Shown piece by piece: positions 7,833 to 52,452 of a stretch of DNA of 52,452 nucleotides. The stretch comes from Escherichia phage EcoM1. The position numbers were made by a program, and so were the translations under genes. The stretch lies in sequence record PQ818760.1. One strand, 5' to 3'. The stretch's first letter is position 1. Every line of letters starts with the position of its first letter. Under the pieces are notes generated by a model. The model was not told the origin of the DNA and ran no database searches. It saw only the letters and a program-made list of their open reading frames with translations.

Positions 7833-7857
7833 TGCGATATACCTATTGAAATTAATA

Positions 7858-7874: not shown

Positions 7875-7884
7875 AAGGAAAGCT

Positions 7885-7898: not shown

Positions 7899-7904
7899 AA
7901 CTCC

Positions 7905-11630: not shown

Positions 11631-11789
11631 CTACTGGTTCGAGTTTCTTACGCAAATCGAGAATGTCGTGGAATAGCAATAAGTCCATAATCGAATAGGT
11701 TCCATCTTGCAATTCATGTAACTTGCAGAGAGAACTGTCTTCGATTATAGGACGATGCAGAAAATATTTTATGTCGGGGAACAGGGATA

Positions 11790-12248: not shown

Positions 12249-12259
12249 ACTTACTCCAA

Positions 12260-12715: not shown

Positions 12716-12725
12716 TTATCGCACC

Positions 12726-31363: not shown

Positions 31364-32014
31364 CTATTCCTGTTTAATGAGTGCCTCCCAGCAAACAGGA
31401 AACAACTCTGACATAATTTTATTAACTTCTTCTGCAAACAAACGTGCCTCATATTGGGCGTGCTCTGTAGAGCGTTGCTTGTACATATTAGCCCAGCCCA
31501 GCAAAGAGCCAGTCCAAATCCATGTAGTCATCATGGATTGTGGCAACACCATTCGGGCTTGCTCTGGAGCAATCCCCAAACCAATTAACGTTTCATACTC
31601 TGCAATGCAAGCCTTGTTGTGGATTTCCATGCGATAGTGAATATCGTCAGCAAAATCCTGTGGCAATGGTTGTGCGGTCTGAGTCATCAACTTTTCAGGA
31701 CGACCAAACACCACATCAGGTACAAAGCATTCAATTTCGATTGCTTCTCCATCTTTGTAACGACGGCTAACTTCGTTCCAACGAAATCCCACCTGGTGCT
31801 TACCCAGTTGGCGTGCAACAAAGATTGGTGCAGTGCAGCGTAATGTTACATACGCATGGGCAAAAGGTGTATTGTGCTTATGCTTTGCGAGAAATTCAAT
31901 CAGCTTCTCGTCGCGCAATGTCATCTCGTGGGACTCTGCACCATAAGAAGCTCGTGCAGCATTAACAGTTGTGAGGTCGCTGCCCATGTGGTCAACGAGT
32001 GTTGCAGTAATCAT
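31364..32014 (-). CDS. thyX: flavin-dependent thymidylate synthase homolog (ThyX family)
   Basis: Aligns by eye to ThyX across the signature region and the C-terminal ARMVLPQS...STEHAQYEARLFAEEV block, but the RHR triad reads KHQ. Confidence 0.65.
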   Translation of the reverse strand: MITATLVDHMGSDLTTVNAARASYGAESHEMTLRDEKLIEFLAKHKHNTPFAHAYVTLRCTAPIFVARQLGKHQVGFRWNEVSRRYKDGEAIEIECFVPDVVFGRPEKLMTQTAQPLPQDFADDIHYRMEIHNKACIAEYETLIGLGIAPEQARMVLPQSMMTTWIWTGSLLGWANMYKQRSTEHAQYEARLFAEEVNKIMSELFPVCWEALIKQE

Positions 32015-36699: not shown

Positions 36700-37422
36700 A
36701 GGAACTCTCCAATTTTCGATTCAATGTTTGTGACTTCTCTTCTCATCTTTTGGCCCAGGAACAGGCCACAGGGTAGCGCAGGAAGGCCGAAAATCGGGCC
36801 ACTGCCTACCGTTTGTGTCAATTCTGGATAACTGCATTGGTGAAGGGTTACTCCCGTTAGGGTGCGATACGCTAATCACATGAGTGTCGTCGCCTTGCGG
36901 CTCAGGCGTGTCACAGAGGCTTTGCAACCCTTCCCAATACATTCACCCAATCCACCTGCTTTGGCATAGCTGGTGGCGCGGTTTTGTGCGGATTATGCCA
37001 CTCTAAGCCCTGTTTGTCCGACTTCCTCAGAGCACCAGCGGCTTGTGGCACAAACCTATTTTCGAATGACTAACATAAGCATGAGGCATAACCCTCTAAT
37101 TATTCAGCCCTAACAGCTTGCTTATTTAGTTCCAATTCATCCCAATACATCGCCTATAACAAGTGAATAGCTTTTCTGCGAAGAAGTATTCCGGCCCTTT
37201 GGCCTATGTTAAAAGATAAATGTATATGATGGAAACATTCCATCGAAAATAACTTTGTAGAATGAGTCGAACATTCTCGCACGATGCGGCCGCAACGGTC
37301 TACCGAGTTACAAAGTTATTATCTGATGTTGTTTCTTCAATTCCAACTAATGTTTCAGAATTATTCCAATATTCCAAACAAAAAGAATAATAAGAATAAA
37401 TTAAAATAAATGAAGAAAGTGC

Positions 37423-37452
37423 TTGACACTCATTTGGCGATAAGTGTATAAT
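37423..37452 (+). promoter_or_regulatory. consensus sigma70-type promoter, plus strand (antisense to genes)
   Basis: TTGACA (37423-37428), 18-bp spacer, TATAAT (37447-37452); preceded by a 45-nt A/T-rich tract (37376-37420) resembling an UP element. Coordinates anchored on the ORF ending at 37488. Confidence 0.5.
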
Positions 37453-37458
37453 GCCTTT
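37441..37458 (-). promoter_or_regulatory. phage promoter-like element
   Basis: + strand ttccaactaatgtttcag; lies inside the non-coding island, overlapping the -10 of the plus-strand sigma70 promoter. Confidence 0.35.
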
Positions 37459-37482
37459 CTTCCCTAAGTGGTCAGAATCAAA

Positions 37483-37499
37483 TCCCACTAATGTTTCAG
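37483..37499 (-). promoter_or_regulatory. phage promoter-like element (variant)
   Basis: + strand tcccactaatgtttcag, 30 nt right of the sigma70 -10 box. Confidence 0.35.
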
Positions 37500-37563
37500 A
37501 CTAAAGCCGAAGGCCAATGCGAGCACAAAACCCGCTTGGCACTTCGAAGAAACCCGCTTGGAA

Positions 37564-37863
37564 CTATAGTGTTTTCCAATCTGAGTCAAATAGCTCTTTC
37601 GGTCGTGTGTAGATAGTAGAAGAATCAATACTCAAGAAAGTATGGTCCCCGTACTTCTTCACTTCTTGGTAAGCAAACCCATCCACCCAACTTCCGCAGT
37701 GAGTTTTAATCTTTGTAGGCCCAAGAATACGATAGAAAGTGTTTCGAGGCTGGTGGTGAACAATCAATCCAGCCTCAAGTTCAGAAATATTTAAATCACG
37801 CATTTGAGAATAGTATCCCTTCGGAGAAAGTGTAATCACTTCCGTAATCTCTTGCAACTGCAT
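37564..37863 (-). CDS. hypothetical early protein
   Basis: 99 aa; 5' end overlaps the ArdA-like gene, true start may be the internal ATG near 37803. Confidence 0.35.
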   Translation of the reverse strand: MQLQEITEVITLSPKGYYSQMRDLNISELEAGLIVHHQPRNTFYRILGPTKIKTHCGSWVDGFAYQEVKKYGDHTFLSIDSSTIYTRPKELFDSDWKTL

Positions 37864-38344
37864 CCCAATCGATATATGGACGAAGATGGTCTGGAACTTC
37901 TATGCCATCATATTGCTGGAAATAATCCGCAATTGAATTACATCGGCAAATAACCTTGTCATTCAAGTCGTCTACAGTGAAAATATCAATATCACCACTG
38001 CGGAATGCCGCAAGAATTACATCCAAATCAGTATCAACAAGCAGTTCGTTGAATTTGTCGTATCTGCGAATGCTGAACAGGCCGTTGGCAAAGCAAACTT
38101 CGGTAACATCTTCTTCATTTGACTCAATTACGTCATATGTACCGGATTCTGGATACTCAATGCCGTATTCTTCATGCAAATATTCCCGCATGTCGAAATC
38201 ATAGTGACGCCAAGATAGGCCATCAATCCACGCATCTACAAATTCAGAATTAGTCTCGCCTGTGTAGAAACGAACCAGTAGGGTTTCATCTCTACGCCAG
38301 GACTTTAGCTGTTCTACTGCTTGAGTAATGTTATCGTTTTGCAT
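37796..38344 (-). CDS. ardA: ArdA-like anti-restriction protein
   Basis: Acidic protein whose C-terminus (HLRPYIDWDAVARDYGSDYTFSEGILFSN) matches the conserved ArdA C-terminal motif as I recall it (YIDYQAYGRDLDLSGTF...). Start taken at the ATG just past the upstream stop. Confidence 0.65.
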   Translation of the reverse strand: MQNDNITQAVEQLKSWRRDETLLVRFYTGETNSEFVDAWIDGLSWRHYDFDMREYLHEEYGIEYPESGTYDVIESNEEDVTEVCFANGLFSIRRYDKFNELLVDTDLDVILAAFRSGDIDIFTVDDLNDKVICRCNSIADYFQQYDGIEVPDHLRPYIDWDAVARDYGSDYTFSEGILFSNA

Positions 38345-38621
38345 TGAGTTTCTCCCACATGCCTTGGAGTTCCGCATTAAGGATTTTGAGCTGTTCGATT
38401 CGCTCCTTTCCACCCTTTACTAATATGTCTAAGATGGCAGTCTTCTCGTCGTATGTTACCGGATAGCAACAACCATCAACCGAAATTTCGTATCGTAGAT
38501 TTCGAGAATCGTACACATAGTTTGACAAATGCTGGTGGAGTTCTGCCTCTGCACGAGATGTGCGAGATTGCATACGCTCTAACTCTTTCGGTATTTCCTG
38601 ATATTCCATCGGATGCTCCAT
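38331..38621 (-). CDS. hypothetical early protein
   Basis: 96 aa, contains a CC pair and a coiled-coil-like C-terminus. Confidence 0.4.
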   Translation of the reverse strand: MEHPMEYQEIPKELERMQSRTSRAEAELHQHLSNYVYDSRNLRYEISVDGCCYPVTYDEKTAILDILVKGGKERIEQLKILNAELQGMWEKLNAKR

Positions 38622-38629
38622 TGATGAAG

Positions 38630-39046
38630 TTATGCTGGAAGTTCGAAGTGCGGCATATCAATCAGCTTCTTCTTACCTGGTGCAAGTGGCGGATACGGCT
38701 GATTTTCATCAATACGGCTCCAATTCCCACCCCAACGAATGGTAATTCCAAGCTCTTTTGCAGCTTTGAACATATGGTGAGCTAAAACTTTGAATCGTTC
38801 GAGGTCATTCCAGTCAATTGGATATGGTGCAATGTCTAAAGCATTGCCTGACATGTGTCGGCTAACTGAAACTTTGGTTGCACCTTGCTTTAAAAGCTCT
38901 TGTTGACGCTCGTAGGTGCGCAAACCTTCGAGAACAGTTACATCAAACGGCATTGTTTCACATGCACGCTTGAAAACTGCCACCAATGAAGGGTTTACGC
39001 CCTTTAATCGGTCAAGAGAACGTTGGCCCAGCTTAACATTAGACAT
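38630..39046 (-). CDS. endolysin, peptidase M15 family (L-alanyl-D-glutamate peptidase-like)
   Basis: 138 aa with SRHMSGNALDI, DWNDLE and DMPHFE motifs, matching the zinc-binding H..D...H arrangement and the size of T5-type endolysins. Confidence 0.8.
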   Translation of the reverse strand: MSNVKLGQRSLDRLKGVNPSLVAVFKRACETMPFDVTVLEGLRTYERQQELLKQGATKVSVSRHMSGNALDIAPYPIDWNDLERFKVLAHHMFKAAKELGITIRWGGNWSRIDENQPYPPLAPGKKKLIDMPHFELPA

Positions 39047-39308
39047 TTTTCAGCTCCTGGTCCAGAGTTTCTTGCAATGTTACGAGCAAGTTCTCAAGTG
39101 TTTCCACACGCTTTTCCAATTCAGCAAGACGGTCTTCCTGAATCTTAATAAACTGTGCACGATTCATTGAAAACCAGACATTATCTGTAAATAGCTGGAT
39201 TTCTTCGGACGTTGAACCTTGCCCTTTCAGTGTTTCAACACGTTCTGAGTGAGTTGCAAGCTCTCGTTTTGCTGCCTTAAGTTGGTCAGCCAGTTCTTCA
39301 ACTTTCAC
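39039..39308 (-). CDS. coiled-coil protein
   Basis: 89 aa, heptad-rich (LAELEKRVETLENLLVTLQETL). Confidence 0.4.
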   Translation of the reverse strand: MKVEELADQLKAAKRELATHSERVETLKGQGSTSEEIQLFTDNVWFSMNRAQFIKIQEDRLAELEKRVETLENLLVTLQETLDQELKNV

Positions 39309-39531
39309 GGAATGGGTTTCCTGTTGGGTTGATGGTTAATTTAAAAGATACAAGCTCCCGATTGATTTCGGTTGTCCCTTCTACTGTGGCTGTAGTCAGA
39401 ATAGCTGCATCTTTCCCTACTCGCTCCAAGAATTTGACTACTCGGTCGCGAATTACTGACCAGTGACGATATTCGCAACTGGATTCAAGTAAGTACGGTA
39501 CTCCATCAATGGTAAATTCGGATGACGTCAT
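39298..39531 (-). CDS. hypothetical early protein
   Basis: 77 aa minus-strand ORF in the coupled array. Confidence 0.4.
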   Translation of the reverse strand: MTSSEFTIDGVPYLLESSCEYRHWSVIRDRVVKFLERVGKDAAILTTATVEGTTEINRELVSFKLTINPTGNPFRES

Positions 39532-39878
39532 TTAACTTCCTTACAGTAGGTTGATAACAATGGAAATTTGGCATGAAAGAAGTCAATGTCACGATAAATC
39601 TGTAGCACTAGACGTTCCTCAGCGTCAACACCAACTAAAGCCAGCTTACTGCTCTGTGTGTTGTAGAACACTGTGGACATTGGGTTAGGATTTCCGTTAT
39701 CTGGAATCTCAATCCAAGTACCCTCGTGCAAAGATATTGTTGCAATGAGTGGCTGGCTCATTGTGATTGTTTCAACAGACATTTTGTATCCGCCGCACTG
39801 GAAGTTACGAACAGATGCTTCCGATTTGAATGCGAATACCCCGAAAAGAATTGTTAGTGCAATGTATAAAGTTTTCAC
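39528..39878 (-). CDS. putative secreted protein
   Basis: Start taken as GTG (VKTLYIALTILFGVFAFKSEA...) giving a signal-peptide-like N-terminus; track ORF extends to 40025. Confidence 0.3.
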   Translation of the reverse strand: MKTLYIALTILFGVFAFKSEASVRNFQCGGYKMSVETITMSQPLIATISLHEGTWIEIPDNGNPNPMSTVFYNTQSSKLALVGVDAEERLVLQIYRDIDFFHAKFPLLSTYCKEVK

Positions 39879-40066
39879 GGAATTAGTGCCTCTGAATAAT
39901 TTTAGATACAGTATGTAGCTTACCTTTATAAAGAATTGCACACCCAACTGTAATAAATTGTTTATTAAGTGTTGAAATTGGCTCGTCAACACCTTCAAGA
40001 TAAATATCCCACATAAATCCTCCAATAATTAATCGAGGCCACTCGAAGTGGAATGACCTCTGTTAA

Positions 40067-40984
40067 TTACAGCTTCTTGATAAGCTCTGCGGATTTGCTT
40101 GCGGCAGCTTTCATTTCATCGCGTGCGGCTTTAACGATTGTTGCCTTGTCCACGCGAATTGATGCATTGCCAATTGCCATCTTGCCATCTTCTGTTGGAG
40201 GAAGTTGGGTTAAATCAAGCATTTGTTCCAGCTTTTGCAAGAGAATACGTTGTGCTTCAATTGCATTTTGAATGTTTAAAGTTTCCATTACTGCTCTTAC
40301 CTTTCTCGAATAAATTCCAGTTAATGTTAGGCGTACTTGCAAACCTTTTACACCATCGTAGTCAATATTGACTTTATTGTATGGTGAGTTTGGATGCTTA
40401 TACACGTTTGTAACAGTTGCCCAATTACCCTTGTACCAAATAACATCACCAACTTCCACATCAGCACCTTTAACATCCTCTTCATCTGAGAATGGTTTCA
40501 CTGCTTCCTCATATGGAAGGAACACTGGCTTTATTTGAGTATCGAACTTCACCGTAGGAGTTTCCTGTGCTGGTGGCGTATTAACAATGTGGACTATGCG
40601 GTTGGGTGAAAAGTCAAAGTATCCTGTTACATGGGTTAATCGAACCACATTTTCAGGTATTTCCCCAAGGTCTTTAACTTCCTTTATCTCAAAGAATCTG
40701 ATTCCATAAGATAAGATGTTTCCAGGTCGTACTTCATGCGCCAATACTGCACGGGTTGTGGTAGGCTTTGTAAAAGATTCTGTAGTGGGACGTTTTTCCA
40801 ATACTCTGACTATACGGCCCAACTCAAAATTAAAGAATCCGCCAGCGTGTTGTAGCTGAACTACATCACTAAGTCTGTTGATGTGTACAATCGGATACCC
40901 TCTACCATCATGAAATACAACATCGCCAGTTTTGACCAAATTTGCAGGTATTTCAACAACATTAATTGCCATGATATTCCTCAC
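40067..40984 (-). CDS. repeat-domain protein
   Basis: 305 aa with three internally similar ~65-aa segments (each beginning V.xGD(V/I)...) and a C-terminal coiled coil; no family recognised. Confidence 0.45.
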   Translation of the reverse strand: MRNIMAINVVEIPANLVKTGDVVFHDGRGYPIVHINRLSDVVQLQHAGGFFNFELGRIVRVLEKRPTTESFTKPTTTRAVLAHEVRPGNILSYGIRFFEIKEVKDLGEIPENVVRLTHVTGYFDFSPNRIVHIVNTPPAQETPTVKFDTQIKPVFLPYEEAVKPFSDEEDVKGADVEVGDVIWYKGNWATVTNVYKHPNSPYNKVNIDYDGVKGLQVRLTLTGIYSRKVRAVMETLNIQNAIEAQRILLQKLEQMLDLTQLPPTEDGKMAIGNASIRVDKATIVKAARDEMKAAASKSAELIKKL

Positions 40985-41094
40985 GCATTGCTGAACAGTG
41001 CTTACACACCCAAAAGGTTACATAATCGTTTGTATGAGAAATCTCCCAATTATGTAGCCCTATAAAACATAAAATTTTCATAGGGCATCTCCAA

Positions 41095-41466
41095 TTAGAA
41101 CGGAATGTCGTCGTCGAAGTCTTTCGGCTCATTCGGGTTATAATTGCTCCGCTGTTGTTGAGCAGGAGCTTGCTGTTGTGCAGAAGGTTGCTGGCGTTGC
41201 TGTTGCTGTTGGGCGGCAGCTTGAGGTTGAGCTTTGGCTTTAGCTTTCTCTTCACGCTTACGCATCATTTCATCGACCTGTTCTTGGGTCATGATGGTTA
41301 ATGCAAGTGAGGTAAATTCATTACCATTTGCTTGCTTGTTCCAGCCAGATACCCAATACCAGATTCCGTCAACGTTAATACGTCCACGAATGTCAGGATG
41401 TTTTGGGTCTTTCTTGAAGCCGTTAGGACCGATAATGCCAGTGTTTACATCTGAATATTGTGCCAT
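41095..41466 (-). CDS. protein with host-SSB-like C-terminal tail
   Basis: 123 aa: about 70-aa N-terminal region, Gln/Ala-rich linker, terminal NEPKDFDDDIPF matching the acidic tip of bacterial SSB; preceded by a promoter-like element. Confidence 0.55.
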   Translation of the reverse strand: MAQYSDVNTGIIGPNGFKKDPKHPDIRGRINVDGIWYWVSGWNKQANGNEFTSLALTIMTQEQVDEMMRKREEKAKAKAQPQAAAQQQQQRQQPSAQQQAPAQQQRSNYNPNEPKDFDDDIPF

Positions 41467-41539
41467 GATTAAGATTCTCTTAAGTTAATTACAGTTTAAG
41501 TTTCAGCGACATTGCTAACCACGGAATAGCTTTGTCTCT

Positions 41540-41557
41540 CACATCCAACTAATGTTA
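41540..41557 (-). promoter_or_regulatory. phage promoter-like element
   Basis: + strand cacatccaactaatgtta, 74 nt upstream of the ATG at 41466. Confidence 0.4.
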
Positions 41558-41595
41558 GATTAATCAGGAACACTCAATGAATGCTCCTTGTTAAT

Positions 41596-41796
41596 TTAAC
41601 AGGATTTACAATCGTTTATAAACTTTCTACGCAATTTGCGTACTTGCTTTTTGGTTGGCTTCGCTGGAAAGAATTTGCATTCAACGTTGTGCCAAAATGG
41701 GTTGTCATCCACTTCAACAAACCACAAAGTCCATCCAGCAGGAACTCCAGTAGGACTGTAACTTTTGTGGCTATACAAATGTGTATCTACAATCAT
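41596..41796 (-). CDS. hypothetical early protein
   Basis: 66 aa, Cys-containing C-terminus. Confidence 0.35.
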   Translation of the reverse strand: MIVDTHLYSHKSYSPTGVPAGWTLWFVEVDDNPFWHNVECKFFPAKPTKKQVRKLRRKFINDCKSC

Positions 41797-42050
41797 TATC
41801 TAACTCCACTAAGTGCTTTATCGAAGTACCACATATCTTTGGTAACCCACTCGCCGCTTGGTGATTTAAGATAGCAAGTGCCATTGATTGTATAGGTGAA
41901 CTCTGTTTGCTGTAGTTCTGCAAAAGTCTTGCACTCGTATTTGTAGACAAAGTATGTAGGCAATACGACCACAACTGCAAGCGCAACAGTGCAGACAACA
42001 ATAGGAAGAACCAATCCTGCAAATATTTCCTTAATATCTTCCTTCATCAC
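41796..42050 (-). CDS. small membrane protein
   Basis: 84 aa with one hydrophobic helix (LVLPIVVCTVALAVVVVLP). Confidence 0.4.
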   Translation of the reverse strand: MMKEDIKEIFAGLVLPIVVCTVALAVVVVLPTYFVYKYECKTFAELQQTEFTYTINGTCYLKSPSGEWVTKDMWYFDKALSGVR

Positions 42051-42334
42051 ATAACCTTTGAAATTGGAATTGGGTCCATATTTGATTCAGGCTTATACCA
42101 ACTAACTTCACCAGAATCTTTCACAAGTTCCCAATTATCGGAGAATGTACGATAACATAAATTGCGGTTATCGTCATTAACGACAAAACCCAAAGGAGAT
42201 TGAATATACGCACCGAGTGTACCGTTGTTGCGAGGAACCCCGTCACCACGACCTGCGACGATTTTGTATTTCTTACCGTTGGTAAAGTTGTAGTTTGTTT
42301 TACCAACATAACGTAAGACTGAATTCTTGTTCAT
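42047..42334 (-). CDS. hypothetical early protein
   Basis: 95 aa coupled ORF. Confidence 0.4.
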   Translation of the reverse strand: MNKNSVLRYVGKTNYNFTNGKKYKIVAGRGDGVPRNNGTLGAYIQSPLGFVVNDDNRNLCYRTFSDNWELVKDSGEVSWYKPESNMDPIPISKVM

Positions 42335-42564
42335 TGCTTTAGTTTCTCCAAAGCGGATAATACGGAATCTCCAGAACCACTAATCACAAGCGTTTCTCCT
42401 GGAAGATTGTAGGATATGTAAGAGAACGTCCATTTTACAATAGTTCTTTGATACGATGAGCTGTATTTATCAGACAGCTCTATATCTTGCCTTGCATCGT
42501 TTAGTAAGAACTCCTGCCCATTGATGGTCAGTTGCTTAAACATTTCGATATAATTCTTACCCAC
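42331..42564 (-). CDS. hypothetical early protein
   Basis: 77 aa coupled ORF. Confidence 0.4.
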   Translation of the reverse strand: MGKNYIEMFKQLTINGQEFLLNDARQDIELSDKYSSSYQRTIVKWTFSYISYNLPGETLVISGSGDSVLSALEKLKQ

Positions 42565-42847
42565 GCTTCACCTTCTCCCATTTGGATAAACCACCTTCAA
42601 GATTGAAGATGCGATTGCAACCAGATTCATCTTTGATGACAAACTGAGTTCCGGTTAACTGGATTGGCTCAAGAGCACCAAATATTACCTTAGGACTAGA
42701 TAAGCTGGTGGCAAGAACTTTATATGCTTTGCTTGGGCAAATATCAAAAGCAAAGTCACGAGTGTAAACTAAGTCACCAACTTTCAAATATGCTGGTAAC
42801 AAGCGACCTGTGGCTGGGTCACGTTGTAAACGGGTACGCTGTTTCAT
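42557..42847 (-). CDS. hypothetical early protein
   Basis: 96 aa coupled ORF. Confidence 0.4.
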   Translation of the reverse strand: MKQRTRLQRDPATGRLLPAYLKVGDLVYTRDFAFDICPSKAYKVLATSLSSPKVIFGALEPIQLTGTQFVIKDESGCNRIFNLEGGLSKWEKVKRG

Positions 42848-42910
42848 AAATGCTCCAAGTTAATTAATAATATTCAGCAACCACTCTCATTACAAAAGTG
42901 GTTGAGGAAA

Positions 42911-43141
42911 TTATTTAATTTCTTTCCAGGACCAGATTCCGCCCTCCAAAGGAACACTTTCTCCCTTGTCAAAGTACGGATTTCCATTGGCGTCTTTACG
43001 GTCACTGTCTTTTGAAATATCTATGCGAGGCTCGATTTTATAACCTCGCTTAACGTGCATAATTCTTCCCTCAATCACGTCACCAACTTTTGGAGAGTGT
43101 TCAGATGAAGAGGTTGATTTCACACATTTAAACTTTGTCAT
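42911..43141 (-). CDS. hypothetical early protein (paralog of the next gene)
   Basis: 76 aa beginning MTKFKCVKST, similar in opening and length to the upstream gene. Confidence 0.4.
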   Translation of the reverse strand: MTKFKCVKSTSSSEHSPKVGDVIEGRIMHVKRGYKIEPRIDISKDSDRKDANGNPYFDKGESVPLEGGIWSWKEIK

Positions 43142-43365
43142 TGTAGTAAACCTTGTTCACAAATATCTGCAAATTCTGCTTCATGGTCACGCTGCCATGT
43201 CCAGAATGCACCATTCATAGGAACGACAGCACCTTTACGAAATGCTGGAGAAACATCTTCAGCCGATTTGGTCACTTTAAATTCCAAAGGTGAGATAGCT
43301 TCACCTTCAACGATGAAGCCAACTGGAACATAGTCTTTGGTTGAAGCAACACATTTAAATTTCAT
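43138..43365 (-). CDS. hypothetical early protein (paralog)
   Basis: Start taken at MKFKCVASTK just past the upstream stop; track ORF extends to 43434. Confidence 0.4.
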   Translation of the reverse strand: MKFKCVASTKDYVPVGFIVEGEAISPLEFKVTKSAEDVSPAFRKGAVVPMNGAFWTWQRDHEAEFADICEQGLLQ

Positions 43366-43367
43366 GA

Positions 43368-43550
43368 TTATCCTTTTGGCGGGATATTCCCACTGTTGTC
43401 TATAAGTTTTCCACGATAAATGTTTAAACCACAATCTACACAGAATGCACTGTCCAGAACTACGGGACCATACATTCCCACTGCTTCGTGTGTTACATGG
43501 TCTACATTATTGCTGCCACACTTTGGGCAAACAACATCATCCTCATTCAT
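43368..43550 (-). CDS. zinc-ribbon protein
   Basis: 60 aa with CPKC...CVDC. Confidence 0.4.
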   Translation of the reverse strand: MNEDDVVCPKCGSNNVDHVTHEAVGMYGPVVLDSAFCVDCGLNIYRGKLIDNSGNIPPKG

Positions 43551-43803
43551 GGTACAGAACTCCTAATTCAGATTTGAGGTTAAATTCACGAAAGAAATCC
43601 ATTGTTACAAAACGGATTTTACCTTCGTCATCAACTACGTTACAGGAGATTTCGGAGTGGACCATACGGCCCAACTTCAAAGCAACTTCTGACAGGTTTG
43701 CTTCACCAGTGCCAGAAATCACTTCATAAATTTTATATGGTGTAAAGCCGCTTAAAGAGTTATTACGGCTTGGGACAATCATCATGCCTGTTCTAGTAGC
43801 CAT
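43543..43803 (-). CDS. hypothetical early protein
   Basis: 86 aa coupled ORF. Confidence 0.4.
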   Translation of the reverse strand: MATRTGMMIVPSRNNSLSGFTPYKIYEVISGTGEANLSEVALKLGRMVHSEISCNVVDDEGKIRFVTMDFFREFNLKSELGVLYHE

Positions 43804-43821
43804 AATAACTCCTAAGTTTAA

Positions 43822-44130
43822 TTAATTGGTTGATACTGCTACTGGTGTTAGCTCTTCAATTTGTCGAAGTGCATCAGCCAATTGTTCCTGGAGCTTGTTC
43901 TTTTGCTCCATCAGTTCATCGTAAGCACTTTGCTCTGCTGTACGAAGTTCACGAAGAGTGTCAATTGTCTCATTGGCTTGAGACAACTGCTCTTCAACGA
44001 GGTTGATGTGGTCCATTACAAAGGCCAACAAACTTACATCAACACGCATGTACGCAATTACATCCTGATTTTTCGGAATAGAATTCTTAGCAACATTTGC
44101 AATATTTGAGAATTCGAGTAAAGAAGCCAT
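43822..44130 (-). CDS. coiled-coil early protein
   Basis: 102 aa, C-terminal heptad-rich region. Confidence 0.4.
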   Translation of the reverse strand: MASLLEFSNIANVAKNSIPKNQDVIAYMRVDVSLLAFVMDHINLVEEQLSQANETIDTLRELRTAEQSAYDELMEQKNKLQEQLADALRQIEELTPVAVSTN

Positions 44131-44225
44131 TTAATTACCTTAGTTTAAGTACATGAAGCTGCCCACAACGAGCAGCGCCAGAGGGAACATTACGATACAG
44201 AATACTAATTTCTTAACAATTGACA

Positions 44226-44399
44226 TTATTTCACCAGGAAGTAGAGAACAATAGCAACACCAACACATGCAATGATTGTTGGCATATAATTATCAATTTT
44301 ACGATATCTACGTTCGACTGGCTTCTTGCCTTTAATGGCATCCATCAGTTCTTGATGATTAATCTGCTGCATGAATGTGTTGAATTGCTGGTCGTTCAT
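44226..44399 (-). CDS. small membrane protein (57 aa)
   Basis: Found by hand: AGGAG 6 nt upstream of ATG at 44399, C-terminal hydrophobic helix (IIACVGVAIVLYFLV); a further ~28-aa hydrophobic ORF may follow it. Confidence 0.3.
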   Translation of the reverse strand: MNDQQFNTFMQQINHQELMDAIKGKKPVERRYRKIDNYMPTIIACVGVAIVLYFLVK

Positions 44400-44408
44400 T
44401 TTATACTC

Positions 44409-44654
44409 CTACTGAACACTTGTCATGAAATTGGTTGTAATTTCTTTAACGACTTTATCTGTGAGAACATCATCAAGAAATTGCTTATTGGTCAGCTCAA
44501 TGCCGAACTCTTCTTTAACAATGGTGACTAGCTCATCTGTTGCAATATCCCACCAACCACCGTAGTTAACAACAAGACGCTCCTGAATGAATTCGACCTT
44601 TTCTTCATAAGAGGCCAACTCGATTAAATCTGCTTTTAACTTAAACTGGCTCAC
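44409..44654 (-). CDS. hypothetical early protein
   Basis: 81 aa acidic protein, ATGA-coupled. Confidence 0.4.
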   Translation of the reverse strand: MSQFKLKADLIELASYEEKVEFIQERLVVNYGGWWDIATDELVTIVKEEFGIELTNKQFLDDVLTDKVVKEITTNFMTSVQ

Positions 44655-44839
44655 TTGGCCTCCAGAATTTGGCTTAATGAACTGAACACGATTTCTTCAT
44701 GTTCGTCAGGTGTACATGCGTTGATGTATTCAAAGTCATACCCAACAAACTTCTCCGCCCACTGTTGCAAACGAAGTAAAGAATTGAAGTACAAACGTTG
44801 CTCTACACCATTTAACTTAAAGTAGACGATGAAGTCCAT
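44651..44839 (-). CDS. hypothetical early protein
   Basis: 62 aa coupled ORF. Confidence 0.4.
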   Translation of the reverse strand: MDFIVYFKLNGVEQRLYFNSLLRLQQWAEKFVGYDFEYINACTPDEHEEIVFSSLSQILEAK

Positions 44840-44841
44840 GA

Positions 44842-45078
44842 TTAACCTCGTGCTTTAATGAATTGAGGGTGAACAGCCATTGCCACAATTTTGTTGTGCT
44901 TGTCATTTTGAATTGCAAGCCAAACATATTCAGGGTGTGCAGCAGGTTTCCAGACCAGACGCCCTCTTTCTCCACAAATCACCGTGTCAGCCAACATTAC
45001 TGCCTTAGTTACGGTATTAACCAAAGCATGTGAAACAGCACCGTCACGATTGATGTACTGATACAGTGCATAATTCAT
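44842..45078 (-). CDS. hypothetical early protein
   Basis: 78 aa; preceded by GGAG and a C9/G9 tract. Confidence 0.4.
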   Translation of the reverse strand: MNYALYQYINRDGAVSHALVNTVTKAVMLADTVICGERGRLVWKPAAHPEYVWLAIQNDKHNKIVAMAVHPQFIKARG

Positions 45079-45119
45079 TTCTGCTCTCCAAATTTGGAGG
45101 GTTTACTCCCCCCCCCGCA

Positions 45120-45338
45120 TTAAACTTCAATTGGCTCTTGAACTAAATCAGAGGCTGAGATTTCTTTAAACTCCTCCTCGGTAAAAGTTCTCTCATTGTC
45201 ATTTAATAAAACACCAATGTTAGAATCACCAACGAATACTGCATTTACATTAACATCATCTTCCAAAACTTTTTGCAGGTGTTCTCCACCACGCGTAAAG
45301 AAGATTGCACCATCTTCCAAATCTTTAAAACGAGTCAT
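45120..45338 (-). CDS. hypothetical early protein (first gene of the early array)
   Basis: 72 aa acidic protein; AGGAG 8 nt upstream of the ATG; preceded by a long inverted repeat. Confidence 0.4.
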   Translation of the reverse strand: MTRFKDLEDGAIFFTRGGEHLQKVLEDDVNVNAVFVGDSNIGVLLNDNERTFTEEEFKEISASDLVQEPIEV

Positions 45339-45360
45339 TTTATTCTCCTAAGTTAAAAGA

Positions 45361-45424
45361 ACTCCCTACAGAACGATTGTGGAGGTCTTGTCTTACCTCA
45401 ATCCACCTTAAAGTTGTAGGGAGT
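45361..45424 (-). promoter_or_regulatory. structured leader (10-bp inverted repeat with nested stem)
   Basis: ACTCCCTACA (45361-45370) pairs with TGTAGGGAGT (45415-45424); nested GAGGT/ACCTC stem inside; 23 nt upstream of the first early gene. Confidence 0.35.
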
Positions 45425-45531
45425 ATGTGACACAGCAAGTGCCGAAAAACTACAATGATTAGCTTGGAGACATAATCTCTCTAAAATCTGTCACACAATT
45501 TCAGCAGAATTTACAGAGATTTGGTCTTATT

Positions 45532-45548
45532 CACATGCAACTAATGAT
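45532..45548 (-). promoter_or_regulatory. phage promoter-like element (GCATGTG variant)
   Basis: + strand cacatgcaactaatgat; same as the recurrent element with c-to-g at one position. Confidence 0.3.
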
Positions 45549-46446
45549 AAATGGACATGCTTAATTGCAACTAACTCATCTGCCAAATAGACGAATTTTG
45601 TCACAATTAAACATGCATCATTAATTACAGGTTTGCTCCTATCTTGGAATGTATTTGGCACATCAAGAAGTGGCGCAATAGGTACGGAAAACCGACCATT
45701 TACAGCATAATAAAACTAATTAAATAAAGGGTTTTACCCCAATATTGTCACAATATTTACATGCGATGATAAAGCCTTCGCTTGGCTGGAAGCCAGTATT
45801 CATGCGGGTTGCAAGAATATTGGGTCAATACTGATACAGCTATTACATGCGAAATTGGCACAAATGTTGTTACAAAATTAACATGCCAGATTGGTAGACG
45901 ATTGTATCTTCGAGGTGATTAGTCCTCTAACAATTCTGCCACATTCCAACATGCCAATTTGTAGCAATATTTACATGCCATACTGCGACAATATTGTCAC
46001 AATATTTGTTGCTCAAAATCGGGGCGGGCTACGGGATTAGTTTCGATGCTTTGTCCGACTTCTTCTCTTCTTTCGAATTCTGATTGAAAGAAAGAAGCAT
46101 GTCCAAAAGTTCCAATATTACCAAAGTTATCTCCCGGCTTGTGGGTGGGCCTTTATAATAGGAGATGGAGCAATATTGAAACAAGTGGACATGCTGATTT
46201 GCTGACTTTCTTGTAACTTAATCAAGATGGCTAACACGATGTTCTGTTGTTAGTTCAGCACCGGAAGTAACAGTTTCGAATGATAATCCTACTTCACACA
46301 TGGTTGCTGGAACTTTGTCCGGCCAAAGACAGGGAGTTCAATGATTGCCACATCATTACAACACTGTATGTTTAGTTGACATGCTGAAATGTTTCTAGAA
46401 TGATTTCAACATGACATGCGGAATACTTCTCCGTATTCTGTTACTT

Positions 46447-46464
46447 CACATCCAACTAATGTCG
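46447..46464 (-). promoter_or_regulatory. phage promoter-like element
   Basis: + strand cacatccaactaatgtcg; coordinates anchored on the plus ORF starting at 46411. Confidence 0.35.
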
Positions 46465-46512
46465 AATATCGAGACAATATTACATGCAGCAATATTGTCT
46501 GAATATTGGGAA

Positions 46513-46680
46513 TCAGTTGAGCGTAGGCTTAACAACTTCATACTGCTTATCACCATCAGTGATTTCACAGTCTACATAGATATTCTCTTCACGAGCTGCA
46601 AACTTACGTGCTTCCTCTAAAGTCTCAAACTTCTCACAAACTGTTTTGCCGTAGTATGTAACGAGGTTAACTGCAAACAT
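46513..46680 (-). CDS. small protein (55 aa)
   Basis: Found by hand: GGAG 7 nt upstream of ATG at 46680, TGA at 46513-46515; a variant promoter-like element ends 29 nt upstream. Confidence 0.3.
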   Translation of the reverse strand: MFAVNLVTYYGKTVCEKFETLEEARKFAAREENIYVDCEITDGDKQYEVVKPTLN

Positions 46681-46708
46681 ATTATGCTCCAAATTGGTTT
46701 ATTAGATT

Positions 46709-46725
46709 CACATGCAACTAATGCC
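46709..46725 (-). promoter_or_regulatory. phage promoter-like element (GCATGTG variant)
   Basis: + strand cacatgcaactaatgcc, immediately after the polymerase stop and 29 nt upstream of the 55-aa ORF. Confidence 0.3.
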
Positions 46726-46743
46726 ATCCTTGGCACATAGTTG

Positions 46744-48684
46744 TTACTGACAGAAGTAGTAAGCGTGTTCGCTCATCAGCAACTCTTCTGTAACAATGTT
46801 CTCATGATACATCTGAATGCCACCAAGTTGCTTAGACAGATTCTCGAATTGATTGTTGGTTACAAAGATTTCAACATATGCTGCACGAATAACTTCCATC
46901 ATACGTGGAGCATCTGCCAGACAGCAACGGAAACAATCATGGATTGAAGTAAAGCCACGAAGACCAGCCTCTTTAGCTTTAACTGCAACAGTACGAGCAA
47001 CCAATGCGTCAATACCTTGAATGTAGTTAACAACGAAAGTACGCTTGAATTCTTCTTTAGTTGGATTGGATTCACGAATGGTCCAAGGCTTATTCTCCTG
47101 AATCTGGCCAAAGATAACACGAGTTTGAGAGTCAACACGAATGCTGAATGCCTCACAGATTTCACGAGATGGGAAGCAAGGCTTCATTACAACCTGACCA
47201 TCAGTGTGACGATATGTGATGTACTCTTTACCAAGTTCAACACAACGGTTGTATGCAGCATCAGCAGCCTTCTCAATGAACATGTTAATCTTAGCACCCA
47301 ATGCGTTATGGATTGCTTCTACACACAGTTCAGCAAATGCCTCAGCTTTCTCCATAGGAATCTGGAGCGCTTCTGTCATGTAGCTAATGAAGTCAGATGA
47401 ACCAGTTAATGCAGCTTTACCACCACCATATTGAATAGCCATGTACGGAGTTTTGATAAACTTACGACCAGCTTTCGGATTCAAGAATTCATCCATGATT
47501 TCAGGAGATGGTTTCATTGAAGAACGGTCTAATAACTTCAACAGTTCACGAAGAGATAACTGGTATGGGTCAGATGCTTTAGTCTCAGAATCAACCAGAC
47601 CTGTTGCACGAGCCATTTCCATGTTACCAGCAATGAATGCCAGATATTGAGTACCAGAACATTTAGCATCTAGGCCAAAGCCTACACGAGAATCGCACTC
47701 ACCTGTAGTCTCAAACTTGAACCAATCCAGAGCCAGACGAACATAAGTGAATGGCTTGGAAGGACGTTCAGCTTTAGGCATGTTCATCATGCGAGCAAGT
47801 GAACCAGCTGGATTCTGAGCAACATAAGTTAAACGCTTAGCAGTACACCATTCACCACCCGAAATATCTTCCAGCTCTGCCATGAACATGTTGTATGCAA
47901 TGGTAGTAGAACCATCTTCGTTAAACTTCTTAACGATGTTCTCAACATTGTGAGAATACAAGCAACGAGCAAAGTCAGATGATTGTGGGTTAGGACCAGC
48001 ACATGCTACATGATACAGACGACCACGGTTATCAGCAAAGTAGTCAGAGTACAGCTTATCCTGATTCATCATTGCTACAGCATTGTTCCAAACATGGAGT
48101 TCAGTCTGGATTGCTTCTGGCATCTGCAAGCCACCATAAGTACGTTGCTCAATCATGGACTGGATGATGCGAACCATCTCAGTCTCCACATGGTACTCAG
48201 TATCTTGCAGGAATTCGATTGCAGCTTTCAGAGTTTTGGATGGCTTAACTTTGCCACCTTTAACGAAAGGCTTGCGACGAGATTCAGATGTAACACGCTC
48301 AGTGAATGGCACTGCTGTGTCTTTGGTTGTAACCAGCTCAACCCATGTGTCAGTCTGTTGGAATGACTTGTCTTCGTTCATGGTGATGAAGCCAAAGTGC
48401 TTAGCCAGACCAATGAGGTTGATAGCTGGGTCAACATAGTGCATTGCTTTCAAATCGTTGTTATAACGGTTGGCATCAGCAATAGAAGCAGAAGCCAGCT
48501 CAACCATCGCGATGGCAGGAACAACGTCATCACGAGTGAAAGACGTCATCATCTTGAAGATGGCTAAGGCAGCAATAGCACAAGTCTGAGGCTGCATATA
48601 GTTCTGTTTCTCTTTGGCACGGTATACCAGAGCAGTGATAGCAGGAACAACGGATTTGATAGTTTGAGTAGTGATAGTAGTCAT
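46744..48684 (-). CDS. single-subunit DNA-dependent RNA polymerase (T7-type)
   Basis: 646 aa with the three catalytic motifs of T7-class polymerases: LDAKCSGTQYLAFIAG (T7 DGSCSGIQHF, motif A), KTPYMAIQYGGGK (T7 KRSVMTLAYGSK, O-helix K/Y), TSIHDCFRCC (T7 LIHDSFGT, motif C). Shorter than T7 RNAP (883 aa). ATG start with GGAG 9 nt upstream. Confidence 0.85.
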   Translation of the reverse strand: MTTITTQTIKSVVPAITALVYRAKEKQNYMQPQTCAIAALAIFKMMTSFTRDDVVPAIAMVELASASIADANRYNNDLKAMHYVDPAINLIGLAKHFGFITMNEDKSFQQTDTWVELVTTKDTAVPFTERVTSESRRKPFVKGGKVKPSKTLKAAIEFLQDTEYHVETEMVRIIQSMIEQRTYGGLQMPEAIQTELHVWNNAVAMMNQDKLYSDYFADNRGRLYHVACAGPNPQSSDFARCLYSHNVENIVKKFNEDGSTTIAYNMFMAELEDISGGEWCTAKRLTYVAQNPAGSLARMMNMPKAERPSKPFTYVRLALDWFKFETTGECDSRVGFGLDAKCSGTQYLAFIAGNMEMARATGLVDSETKASDPYQLSLRELLKLLDRSSMKPSPEIMDEFLNPKAGRKFIKTPYMAIQYGGGKAALTGSSDFISYMTEALQIPMEKAEAFAELCVEAIHNALGAKINMFIEKAADAAYNRCVELGKEYITYRHTDGQVVMKPCFPSREICEAFSIRVDSQTRVIFGQIQENKPWTIRESNPTKEEFKRTFVVNYIQGIDALVARTVAVKAKEAGLRGFTSIHDCFRCCLADAPRMMEVIRAAYVEIFVTNNQFENLSKQLGGIQMYHENIVTEELLMSEHAYYFCQ

Positions 48685-48752
48685 TTGTAAGTCTCCAAGA
48701 TTGTGTATGATTTAACTGAAACGGATTATAATAGCGTAGCCATTACACAATT

Positions 48753-48770
48753 CACTTCCAACTAATATCA
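48753..48770 (-). promoter_or_regulatory. phage promoter-like element upstream of the polymerase gene
   Basis: + strand cacttccaactaatatca, 69 nt upstream of the polymerase ATG; a TATAAT hexamer lies between it and the gene. Confidence 0.35.
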
Positions 48771-48909
48771 CAAACCTGTGCCATTGTTACAACAGCACGG
48801 AGACTTTGACCTTGACCTATAAGCGAAGCGCCTAACTTGGTGTTGTTTGAAAGCCGATAGGCTTTAGGAAAAAGTTGGGGTAGGGACCGTATTTTAAGTC
48901 CGATAGGAC

Positions 48910-49270
48910 GTTGGGCTTCCCCTCCTCGGAGATAAAAATTTTAAAATAATAATGTCACAACTTCCCCTCCTCGCTGGCCCAAAAATAAAAATTATAATTT
49001 TGCCACAATTCTAGTCTCATTAATATTGTAGCAATTTGAGTCTCATTAATTCCGTAACAATATTCGAAATAAAAAAAATTATATAAAAATTTTTATAACA
49101 TAGTCGGACTTCTGTTGTTACTTCGTAACGGGTTCGAACAAATTTCGGCTAGATACAGCTGACCGACCGTGAACGAATCTATATCCAGGTACAGTTGACC
49201 GACCATGTACCATTTGGTTTTGAACTTTACGCATTCCTAATATTACTTTAAATATTGTAGCAATATTGGG
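48910..49270 (-). repeat. AT-rich non-coding block with paired direct repeats
   Basis: Duplicated cttcccctcctcg (48916, 48961), (t/g)agtctcattaat (49012, 49038), ACAG(C/T)TGACCGACC(G/A)TG (49155, 49191), aatattgtagcaat (49022, 49251), and long A/T runs. Coordinates anchored on the polymerase start and the nrdB stop. Confidence 0.45.
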
Positions 49271-49384
49271 AATAAGTAATATTTAACTTTACTTATTTTA
49301 TTCTAGCTCAAAGAGAAACGACGCTAACGCATCGAATCTCTTCTCGCATATTAACTGACAAACGTCAGCCCTCACCGTATCCAA

Positions 49385-50485
49385 TCATAATTCAAATCCA
49401 CCTAGAGCATTGGTATCCACTTCGGAGTCAATCTGCCCGACAAGGTACGAACTAATCTCCGTTTCCTGCGGAGCAACCTGTACAGCATCCGAATTCAACC
49501 ATGCGTTAATCCACGGAATCGGGTTAGTAGCACCTTTGAATGGAGCATCTAATCCAACTGCTTGCATACGAATATTCGTGATATATTCCACATATCCGCA
49601 CAGAATTTGCTTGTTTAAGCCAATCATTGAGCCATCTTTGAACAGATAATCAGCCCAATCTTTCTCTTGTTGGGCCACATTTTCGAACATTTCTTGGCAT
49701 TCTTGACGGCATTCTTTAGCAATTTCGGCCATTTCTGGGTCATCAACACCACTTGCAAGAAGGTTCAGCATGTGTTGAGTTCCGGTCAAATGGAGTGCTT
49801 CATCACGAGCAATTAAGCGAATAATCTTGGCATTTCCTTCCATTAACTTGCGTTCAGCGAAGGCAAATGAGCAAGCAAAGCTGACATAAAAGCGGATTGC
49901 TTCCAGTGCATTGATAGACATGAGGCATAAATACAGCTTCTTCTTAAGCTCACGAAGAGAAACTTTATCTTCATGCAGATGCCACATGGAAGTTAGATGT
50001 TGAAGCTCGTCATAATATTGGGAGATGCCAATTGCACGCATTTTAATATGCTCATTCTCCACAATTTCATCGAAAATTGCGCTTGGGTCTGTCACGATAT
50101 TACGAATAATATGCGTGTAAGAACGAGAATGAATTGTCTCTGAGAATGACCAAGTTTCAATCCAAGTTTCAAGCTCAGGAATGCTCACAATTGGTAGCAA
50201 AACTGTAGTTGGTCCGCGTCCTTGAATAGAATCAAGCAGGATTTGGTATCGTAAATTGCTGGTGAAAATGTGTTTCTCACACTCAGGAAGACCAGCATAG
50301 TCAATTCGGTCCTGGCTAACATCAACCTCCTCAGGTCGCCAAAAGAAAGACAACTGCTTCTCGATTAACTTCTCGAAGATGCTGTACTTCTGTTGGTCAT
50401 ATCGAGCAACGTTAACGTTCTGACCAAAGAACATTGGCTCTAGTAGTTGGTTATTCTTGGTTTGTGAAAAGGTAGTGTAAGCCAT
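49385..50485 (-). CDS. nrdB: ribonucleotide reductase class Ia beta subunit
   Basis: [15 protein letters not shown] with the E-x2-H-x3-Y iron/tyrosyl-radical arrangement, a second carboxylate-His site (RDEALH), and upstream Asp/Glu ligands; 366 aa. Confidence 0.9.
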
Positions 50486-51039
50486 TACAGATTTCCTAGA
50501 TACTCATAGAATTTATGGCCACCATAACGTCCCAAACCTTTTACATTCTTGAAGTTACACTTCTCCGATGCTGTACAAAAGTGGGTTGCTTTGGTGACAG
50601 AGGGTTGATTAAATAATACAAAAGAGATTGCAACATTAATGGTGTCCAGAACTTGTTGTTGTTCTGTGGCATAATTAATCTTTGCTACATGCTTCCATTG
50701 AGCATTCTTCTTCTTTGCTTCTCGTGTCCATGCAAATTGATTGCGTTGATAGACAACATCACAAACGGTGTTAGCGAATGGCTTCCCGAACTCTGTTCTA
50801 TTGCGGACGACATTAGCTACCAGAATCTTTCCATGTTTGTCTTCTCCGCGAGCCTCATACCAGATAACTTTAGTGTAGCATTCTAGCTCTTTGCGTTGTG
50901 AAGAAGATAGTTTCAGACTTCCATTTAAATAAGAATGACTTGCAAAATCTGTAATAGCAGAATTCACTGCCCCAACCGAAGCTGGGGCGTTGATGTGAAC
51001 TAAAGCTGTCAGAAGTGCAAGAACTTTGAATGATAGCAT
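50485..51039 (-). CDS. secreted cell-wall hydrolase, CwlJ/SleB-like
   Basis: N-terminal signal peptide ([24 protein letters not shown]) then [24 protein letters not shown] and [11 protein letters not shown], matching the CwlJ/SleB catalytic-domain signature; immediately downstream of the holin. Confidence 0.7.
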
Positions 51040-51056
51040 TCGAGTTCCTTATCATT

Positions 51057-51398
51057 TCATCGTGCCTTCTTGAACCACGTTAAAGGGTTAAGTTGTTTGA
51101 TTGCGCCAGAGAAGCTTTCCCTGACAGTTGTGATAATGAGGTTTGCACCGATGACACCAATCACGATAGCCAGAACTAACTGCATTGTGACGTTAGTGGT
51201 GAAAGTTTCAAACGTGCCAGCAACATGAAAGGCAAACAAGCCAATCAAGCTGCATAGCGCTGCATCCAGCAACGCTTTGCTTAAACCTTCACTTTCGTAT
51301 GCACCACGGATTAAAGCCGTCAGACCAGCCAGCAGCCCATGCCATACGCCATACTGGTGCATCAGGTCCACAAACATCTGAATGGATAAGCGTTCCAT
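51057..51398 (-). CDS. holin, lambda-S-like class I
   Basis: From MERLSIQMF...: three hydrophobic segments and LIRGAYESEGLSKALLDAALCSLIGLFAF aligning with lambda S ([28 protein letters not shown]). An in-frame upstream Met (MPSGNGWLKEIM) gives a possible dual-start antiholin form; track ORF extends to 51506. Confidence 0.7.
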   Translation of the reverse strand: MERLSIQMFVDLMHQYGVWHGLLAGLTALIRGAYESEGLSKALLDAALCSLIGLFAFHVAGTFETFTTNVTMQLVLAIVIGVIGANLIITTVRESFSGAIKQLNPLTWFKKAR

Positions 51399-51405
51399 GA
51401 TTTCC

Positions 51406-52452
51406 TTAAGCCACCCGTTTCCAGAAGGCATAATAGTGGGACGAGTTGCGCACGTTAAGCGCCGCGCCGTCACCAGTTGAGGTTGTAGTGTTGTTGCTAG
51501 GACCACCCGTGGTTAGTGCCGTGCCTCCCGTACTTCCTGCACTAGAGCCGCCACTTGTACCTGTGAAGTTAGGCAAGTCAACAGAGTGCGTGTGGTTGCC
51601 ATTAGCATTGGCTGTACCGCTAATGCTGTGGGTATGGTTGCCAGCACCGTTTGTCGAGCCAACGTGTGTCTGAGCAGAGTTTGAGGAAGCAACCCTACCA
51701 GAACGTACGTTGGCGTTATCACCCTGAGATATTGGGTGGGAGTGCTCACCAGCAGCGTTAGCTGTGCCACTAAGCGAGTGGTCGTGCCAACCAGCGGTGC
51801 TGGTGTTCACTGCCCCGTGGTCGTGGTTGATTGTGTGAGTGTGGGACATCGTGTGGGAGTGGGCTGCAATACCGTGAGTGTGGTTTTGCATTCCGTGTGT
51901 GTGGCCCGGCAAGTTGGCTACAGCAATGCTGGCAGTATCTGACCCAGCTACTGAACCAATCTGCCCATCAGCCGTCCCAGCTTCCGGACCAGTCGCAGCA
52001 CGGGCAGTACGACCATCAGTGATTTGTTCCCACACAGTACCGGTGAATGTGTTGTTCGGGTTGGTGGCATTATCAAACTTGAGGACAATACCGATTGGAT
52101 AGATTGCATTATAAATGTTGTTTGCATTTATAAGCTCCACCCAATTCCCAAATGCCTCACTATCTGCGGCATAGTTTTGGCTACGAACCCAGCAACGCAA
52201 TGTGCCGTATGTCGTATATCGTTGCATCACCCTACCAAACTTATTGGCGCTGTGAGGCAACACTTCAAGAGTTCCTGCCTGAGCACCTGCTGGGTAATTG
52301 TTTGAAGTCGTGGCATAAGCATTGGACGATTGGTAATACACACCTACACTGTCCATTCCCGTGAGGGTGTCCAATTTTGTATTGTCCAGGTTGGTACGAG
52401 ACTTCATGTAGTGCTCGTCAACCAGTGCATCTAAAGAATAGCCTTTAGCCAT
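51406..52452 (-). CDS. fiber-like protein with His-x-His repeats
   Basis: 348 aa; ATG is the last three bases of the window; C-terminal half has about 10 HxH motifs (GHTHGMQNHTHGIAAHSHTMSHTHTINHDH...NHTHSISG...NHTHSV) like metal-binding fiber tip domains. Assignment by motif analogy. Confidence 0.4.
   Translation of the reverse strand: MAKGYSLDALVDEHYMKSRTNLDNTKLDTLTGMDSVGVYYQSSNAYATTSNNYPAGAQAGTLEVLPHSANKFGRVMQRYTTYGTLRCWVRSQNYAADSEAFGNWVELINANNIYNAIYPIGIVLKFDNATNPNNTFTGTVWEQITDGRTARAATGPEAGTADGQIGSVAGSDTASIAVANLPGHTHGMQNHTHGIAAHSHTMSHTHTINHDHGAVNTSTAGWHDHSLSGTANAAGEHSHPISQGDNANVRSGRVASSNSAQTHVGSTNGAGNHTHSISGTANANGNHTHSVDLPNFTGTSGGSSAGSTGGTALTTGGPSNNTTTSTGDGAALNVRNSSHYYAFWKRVA

Follow-up and report, generated by a model that had tools for sequence, protein, structure and literature searches.

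The beta subunit of class Ia ribonucleotide reductase (RNR), NrdB, usually has its alpha partner, NrdA, in the same genome, and in 74 of 80 bacterial loci, as well as in a T4-like phage, nrdA lay immediately upstream of its partner gene. In E. coli, the C-terminal tail of NrdB reaches into alpha and bears Y356. T4-like phages keep nrdA directly upstream of nrdB within a nucleotide-metabolism cluster that also contains td and frd. A different arrangement is documented for poxviruses: most chordopoxviruses encode R2 only, poxvirus R2 and host R1 form functional hybrids, and vaccinia F4 does so with host R1 via its C-terminal residues (PMC2900304). The phage locus described here resembles that case (PMC2900304) in having a small subunit only, a host-like sequence and a conserved C-terminal tail; however, the poxvirus system is eukaryotic, and there both the hybrid and its necessity were established by co-immunoprecipitation and mutants. 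Among bacterial viruses, the last ORFs of ST32 and phiEcoM-GJ1 have been described as encoding an RNR beta subunit (PMC6266442), and Dwivedi 2013 listed two nrdB-only phages, phiEcoM-GJ1 among them (Table S1, PMC3653736), and stated that whether incomplete RNR sets are functional was not known (PMC3653736). Both nrdB and its lone status are already known for Carltongylesvirus. The copies in phiEcoM-GJ1 (gp75), ST32 (ORF79), flopper (gp26), Mangalitsa (Mangalitsa_081) and SA91KD are the same gene as the one analysed here, likewise situated as the last ORF, behind the endolysin, in collinear genomes and with 93-99.7% protein identity, and show no material difference from it.

We analysed the whole 52,452-nt stretch of Escherichia phage EcoM1 (PQ818760.1), hereafter the window. 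Megablast placed it among Carltongylesvirus-type phages of the Chaseviridae (flopper, Bp10, ST32 and others; 85-96% identity). Compared with the complete flopper genome (52,092 bp), 48,829 of the 52,452 window bases aligned at 80-99% identity, with flopper 1-14003 matching window 37342-52137 and flopper 14856-52003 matching window 548-37248. Window positions 1 and 52452 adjoin within the tail-fibre region in both flopper and Bp10. The window thus represents an entire ~52-kb Carltongylesvirus genome (Chaseviridae, Cleopatravirinae) in circularly permuted form. It has the collinear ~52-kb genome, the T7-like RNA polymerase (PF00940), which is a hallmark of Chaseviridae, and the single coding strand of that genus; large ORFs that match annotated genes of relatives are all on the minus strand.

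The minus-strand ORF at 49385..50485 is nrdB and encodes a 366-aa protein from an ATG start. The protein matched the Pfam profile of the RNR small chain (PF00268) over profile positions 7-281 of 281 (E = 1.6e-49, 169 bits against a cut-off of 33.6 bits), aligned end to end with the E. coli NrdB structure 7ai8_A (E = 8e-200), and shared 79.5% amino-acid identity with E. coli NrdB over the full length (tblastn). The six diiron ligands (D84, E115, H118, E204, E238 and H241) and the radical-bearing Y122 were present in the phage protein and in seven relatives, as were W48, F208, D237, I297, E350 and Y356. The residues for radical transfer and gating towards alpha (W48, D237, E52, E350 and Y356) were all conserved, and every cofactor and radical-transfer residue is shared with E. 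coli NrdB (1RIB, 7AI8, 6W4X). The ORF encodes an intact beta subunit of class Ia RNR, which bears out the original prediction of an intact protein with all metal ligands and the radical tyrosine. In length the protein differs from bacterial NrdB only by lacking the 10 residues that correspond to E. coli G173-V182, in a hairpin segment; PYps3T, MLP1 and Pel53 have a 4-residue deletion in this segment instead, and the Yersinia relatives and MLP1 have a 372-aa form with the smaller deletion. The phage copy further differs from E. coli NrdB by N131T, N343A and D368N and by its phage-like base composition, and its locus, unlike that of E. coli, lacks an adjacent nrdA or yfaE. A remnant of yfaE downstream of nrdB was considered, and tblastn against the window found none.

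No alpha subunit accompanies this gene. The best match of E. coli NrdA in the window had an E value of 1.1 (tblastn), a Pfam search of the window found no RNR alpha subunit, and nrdA was absent from the annotation of every relative examined; the usual presence of NrdA in the same genome as a class Ia beta does not hold here. The prediction had gone further in stating that no gene of alpha-subunit size exists in the window. This is correct as far as an RNR alpha is concerned, but ORFs of 588-1241 aa do exist. They encode the RNA polymerase, a family A DNA polymerase, a primase-helicase, the terminase and a 1241-aa virion protein bearing both a YqaJ and an SLT domain; further large ORFs specify portal, sheath and baseplate proteins. 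The prediction had also left room for an nrdA just outside the window, which would make the phage RNR complete, and had called for inspection of the full genome. Since the window is a circularly permuted whole genome, nothing lies beyond its edges, and an outside nrdA is excluded; the full genome, inspected here, contains none. What could be said for that alternative is that the window has edges, with no other support, and that bacterial nrdA so often sits directly upstream of nrdB. It would require a genome much larger than those of the relatives, with unique DNA inserted exactly at the arbitrary cut point of the window, although the window is collinear with the entire flopper genome, its two ends are joined in flopper and Bp10, the predicted physical ends fall within it (Table 1), and relatives have no annotated nrdA. 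We therefore give an outside nrdA practically no credence.

Table 1. Features at and around nrdB in the window.
Feature	Position	Strand	Evidence
nrdB, class Ia RNR beta subunit, intact, 366 aa	49385..50485	-	PF00268, E. coli structures, residues, dN/dS
C-terminal tail codons, residues 333-366 (E. coli D342-L375)	49388..49489	-	alignment with E. coli
Junction of 10-residue deletion (E. coli G173-V182, hairpin segment ~170-184)	49964..49969	-	alignments
RBS AGGAAA (50497-50492) and nrdB ATG (50485-50483)	50483..50497	-	sequence
Terminator-like hairpin followed by TTTCTCTTTG, 51 nt past nrdB stop	49319..49334	-	weak evidence
Endolysin (cell-wall hydrolase), directly upstream of nrdB, one-base overlap	50485..51039	-	PF07486, E = 1.1e-15
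Holin, 113 aa, start as in relatives	51057..51398	-	PF05106, E = 1.5e-7
Tail fibre, upstream of nrdB	51406-52452	-	
Predicted physical genome end, where ~3.2-kb direct terminal repeat with RNA polymerase gene begins	48897..48898	.	homology
T7-like single-subunit RNA polymerase, first gene of terminal repeat	46744..48684	-	PF00940, E = 5.9e-18; annotated in relatives

The neighbourhood of nrdB is that of lysis and tail-fibre genes (Table 1). Relatives annotate its upstream neighbour as an endolysin or SAR endolysin; the nrdB ATG and the endolysin TAA stop share one base (TAATG), the RBS lies within the end of the endolysin gene, and the same overlap is tabulated for ORF78/79 of ST32 (PMC6266442). 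The other nucleotide-metabolism genes are far away in the replication module (ThyX at 31364-32014, dUTPase at 22974-23495), in agreement with the predicted placement of nrdB beside lysis genes and apart from nucleotide metabolism. For the holin, the mechanically called ORF (51057-51506, minus strand) would start at a GTG, encode 149 aa and overlap the tail-fibre gene by 101 nt. A start at MERLSIQ (window 51398), as annotated in relatives, is more likely, and the resulting 113-aa reading agrees with their 342-nt holin gene.

Matches to sigma-70 promoters in 48500-52452, sought as a possible start before nrdB, were at chance level (8 found, 7.8 expected). The hairpin past the nrdB stop was the only terminator-like site in the same interval, where 3.3 were expected in shuffled sequences. 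We noticed that CATTAGTTGGAWNTG occurs in 11 copies on the coding (minus) strand and 13 on both strands against 1.1 expected, an enrichment that is partly circular because the motif was derived from the same sequence. The minus-strand copies are at 48753, 46709, 46447, 45532, 41540, 37479, 37338, 35533, 35201, 27477 and 7858; those compared with the ORF coordinates were intergenic, and the copies may be regarded as candidate promoters for the phage T7-like RNA polymerase. None of them falls within the ~10.9 kb from 7858 through the 1/52452 junction to nrdB, so nrdB would be the tail of a long late transcript. Judging from its position, the gene presumably shares its transcript with the tail-fibre and lysis genes, which are late. 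Such a late-operon position is odd for a gene of dNTP supply. A literature search for transcriptome data on Carltongylesvirus found nothing relevant.

The PhageTerm-annotated ends of Mangalitsa and 4HA13 both map to window 48897/48898 (blastn), and by homology we predict the physical end of the present phage at this point. Mangalitsa has a 3,234-bp direct terminal repeat that begins ~210 bp ahead of its RNA polymerase gene. With ends at this point, the unique region of the packaged genome would have nrdB as its final gene of any size, 487 bp before the right terminal repeat. The AT-rich spacer between the predicted boundary and nrdB (48898-49385) contains two CTTCCCCTCCTCG... copies at the boundary itself (48916-48953 and 48961-48998), along with recurring AATTGCTACAATATT-like elements and an ORF of 38 codons that itself contains a repeat. 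In flopper, the corresponding spacer has annotated repeat regions.

Four sister genera, represented by Loessnervirus Y2, Myducvirus Myduc, Sabourvirus 4HA13 and Suwonvirus PP101, carry at most tiny ORFs in this place behind the endolysin. The complete genome of 4HA13, which also infects E. coli, contains neither nrdB nor nrdA, and its endolysin and genome ends align to the window with a clean gap at the nrdB position. The gene is thus an accessory insertion, found in Carltongylesvirus and in the Yersinia PYps3T/MLP1 lineage, and a copy at least 90% identical occurs in 45 phage records. Because sister genera do without nrdB, including 4HA13 on the same host species, any benefit to the phage would be conditional. 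Escherichia phage 18-1-2 was considered as a second small phage with a lone nrdB and was rejected, as its record is a partial scaffold that carries nrdA. PP952070.1, "Staphylococcus phage Pel53", has 89% DNA identity here and carries the same nrdB; its stated host, Staphylococcus hyicus, looks doubtful. Partial nrdB matches were also seen in 202 E. coli plasmid records (~75% identity over ~130 nt).

Among phage nrdB copies, dN/dS was 0.02-0.08 with dS of up to 0.75, indicating strong purifying selection. Nucleotide identity to E. coli nrdB was only ~70%, with saturated dS, and GC3 was 0.41, like that of other phage genes, versus 0.63 in E. coli nrdB. Taken together, the low dN/dS, the saturated dS against E. 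coli and the phage-like GC3 show that nrdB is old in these phages and has been maintained by selection. Its identity to bacterial proteins is flat, marginally highest for Escherichia and Klebsiella at 80% and at 75-78% for other Enterobacterales and Pasteurellaceae. A neighbour-joining tree rooted with T4-like NrdB placed the phage clade outside Enterobacterales, Pasteurellales and Vibrio, a placement to which long-branch attraction may contribute. Recent capture from the present host was not supported by the nucleotide identity, saturated dS, GC3 and tree placement, although the slight peak in protein identity falls on Escherichia and Klebsiella.

We compared the alpha-facing residues of the phage protein using the direct alpha-beta contacts given in Tables S9-S10 of PMC11551348 for the 2.6-A cryo-EM structure of E. 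coli alpha2beta2. The phage protein is identical to E. coli at 29 of the 32 contact residues of beta (13/13 in the body, 11/13 in the tail and 5/6 across protomers); N131T, N343A and D368N are the exceptions, the latter two in the tail. The C-terminal tail, which the original prediction had singled out for comparison with the host, is identical at 26 of 34 residues and keeps the anchors L370, F373 and L375; on this alignment it has the make-up expected of an alpha-binding tail. Identity at contact residues (29/32) did not significantly exceed that in the remainder of the protein (269/343; Fisher p = 0.11). T4-like NrdB, which has its own NrdA, belongs to the same broad class Ia beta family (~53% identity) and has several residue states in common with the phage copy; it keeps only 23 of the 32 E. 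coli contacts and has a different tail end, KKYF. On the opposite side of the interface, the 31 alpha residues that face these contacts were invariant or nearly so across 74 species of Enterobacterales and Pasteurellales, candidate hosts among which are Escherichia and Yersinia, the genera that this phage clade infects. Given such a near-invariant docking surface, one phage beta could serve all hosts of the clade. Both N131T and N343A occur in all phage copies at positions invariant in 115 bacterial NrdBs, which counts against pairing with host alpha.

Since the phage has no alpha of its own, its beta2 most likely docks on host NrdA. Our preferred explanation, which we hold to be probable, is that a working class Ia beta2 docks on host NrdA (alpha2) and that the resulting hybrid adds to or sustains dNTP supply. 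The phage gene would yield a working beta2, the diferric-tyrosyl radical protein; this would dock on host alpha2 to form a hybrid enzyme, which would in turn add to or sustain ribonucleotide reduction and hence dNTP supply during infection. We infer the physical pairing, the activity and the benefit to the phage from the contacts, the tail, the selection on the gene and the invariant host surface, and of the two options raised in the prediction, pairing with the host alpha is accordingly the better supported. The phage has no viral large subunit, and its small subunit is intact and predicted to be catalytically competent, as in small-subunit-only systems. As to why beta alone should be carried, we can only speculate that the radical cofactor can limit activity and that the gene is a third of the size of nrdAB, the same strategy being documented for R2-only poxviruses. 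The late-operon position, the two fixed contact changes, the absence of the gene from sister genera and the non-significant excess of identity at the contacts weigh against the hybrid. A literature search for biochemical or genetic work on the phage NrdB of any member found none.

Other explanations are less likely than the hybrid. One is that the hybrid forms but is regulated differently, for instance by escaping dATP feedback as T4 RNR does, with altered regulation as its purpose. In its favour, all phage copies are substituted at positions invariant in close bacterial homologues: nineteen phage-fixed substitutions fall at positions almost invariant in 115 of these, among them R292K, D302Q and Q306G on the helix that bears I297, and seven of the fixed states are common to T4-like NrdB. 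Yet I297, through which beta locks the dATP-inhibited alpha4beta4 ring (PMC11447812), is kept together with its neighbours S295, M296 and N300, while position 297 is Pro in the T4-like protein; escape from dATP inhibition was rejected on this ground. The supposedly phage-specific states are also common in the wider class Ia family, T74, I81, N340 and T351 being the commonest states among 87 wider-family representatives, so they look like ordinary family variation or the mark of an early-branching origin. Only positions 131 and 343 of the nineteen are direct alpha contacts, and adaptation of the alpha interface was not supported, in view of this count (2/19), the commonness of the states in the wider family and the p value of 0.11. 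The hairpin segment varies from 0 to 51 residues across the same 87 representatives and is therefore a variable surface element; with its unequal shortening within the phage clade, this led us to reject its deletion as a functional adaptation. The sequence comparisons gave no evidence of altered regulation, and we consider altered regulation as the purpose of the gene unlikely. It is similarly improbable that the hybrid of phage beta2 and host NrdA behaves unlike the host enzyme in ways that go beyond added capacity, for example through weaker dATP-induced rings, YfaE independence or resistance to radical quenching; if it did, this would be the first bacterial virus to take over the regulation of a host enzyme by swapping one subunit.

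A decoy or dominant-negative role, in which the phage protein ties up host NrdA or enters mixed dimers with the NrdB of the host and so throttles or redirects host dNTP synthesis, would account for the conserved tail and contacts, and the late-operon position is consistent with some task apart from feeding replication. There is also a precedent, in that a poxvirus R2 without catalytic activity but still able to bind R1 acts as a dominant negative (PMC2900304). A decoy needs a binding surface only, yet the six metal ligands, Y122, W48, D237, E52, E350 and Y356 were kept in 8/8 copies, the whole protein is under strong purifying selection, and the phage encodes ThyX and dUTPase, which point to a need for dNTPs; we regard a decoy as quite unlikely. 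That nrdB is a decaying or neutral passenger from the host or another phage, with no current function, would fit its status as an accessory insertion absent from four sister genera and the shrinking of the hairpin segment, by 4 residues in some lineages and 10 in others. However, that segment is variable family-wide, the frame is intact in all copies examined, the 45 records retain the gene, its base composition is now phage-like, and the selection data (dN/dS and dS as above) disfavour neutrality, making a passenger very unlikely.

If the hybrid is real, it would be a counterpart, among bacterial viruses, of the poxvirus R2-only strategy and would point to the radical-bearing small subunit as what limits dNTP supply in infected E. 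coli. The system lends itself to study, given that E. coli alpha2 belongs to the best-studied RNR and that sister phages on the same host are naturally without nrdB.

In a public protein collection, we came across a 494-aa "NrdB" with repeated ...VSYTHLDVYKRQ... segments. It contains DVYKRQ, which we take to be a translated Nextera adapter, and the entry looks more like a product of misassembly than a genuine variant. Elsewhere in the window, five ~27-nt repeats (CAATATTGTCACAATATTTACATGCGA) lie at 45740-46015 with spacings of 35-92 nt, downstream of the gene for RNA polymerase and inside the predicted terminal repeat; possible roles include those of early promoters, operators and origin elements. 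Finally, the 1241-aa virion protein (7905-11630, minus strand), whose 4HA13 counterpart is called "tape measure", carries both a YqaJ-like nuclease domain (residues 468-604) and an SLT transglycosylase domain (residues 1059-1152).
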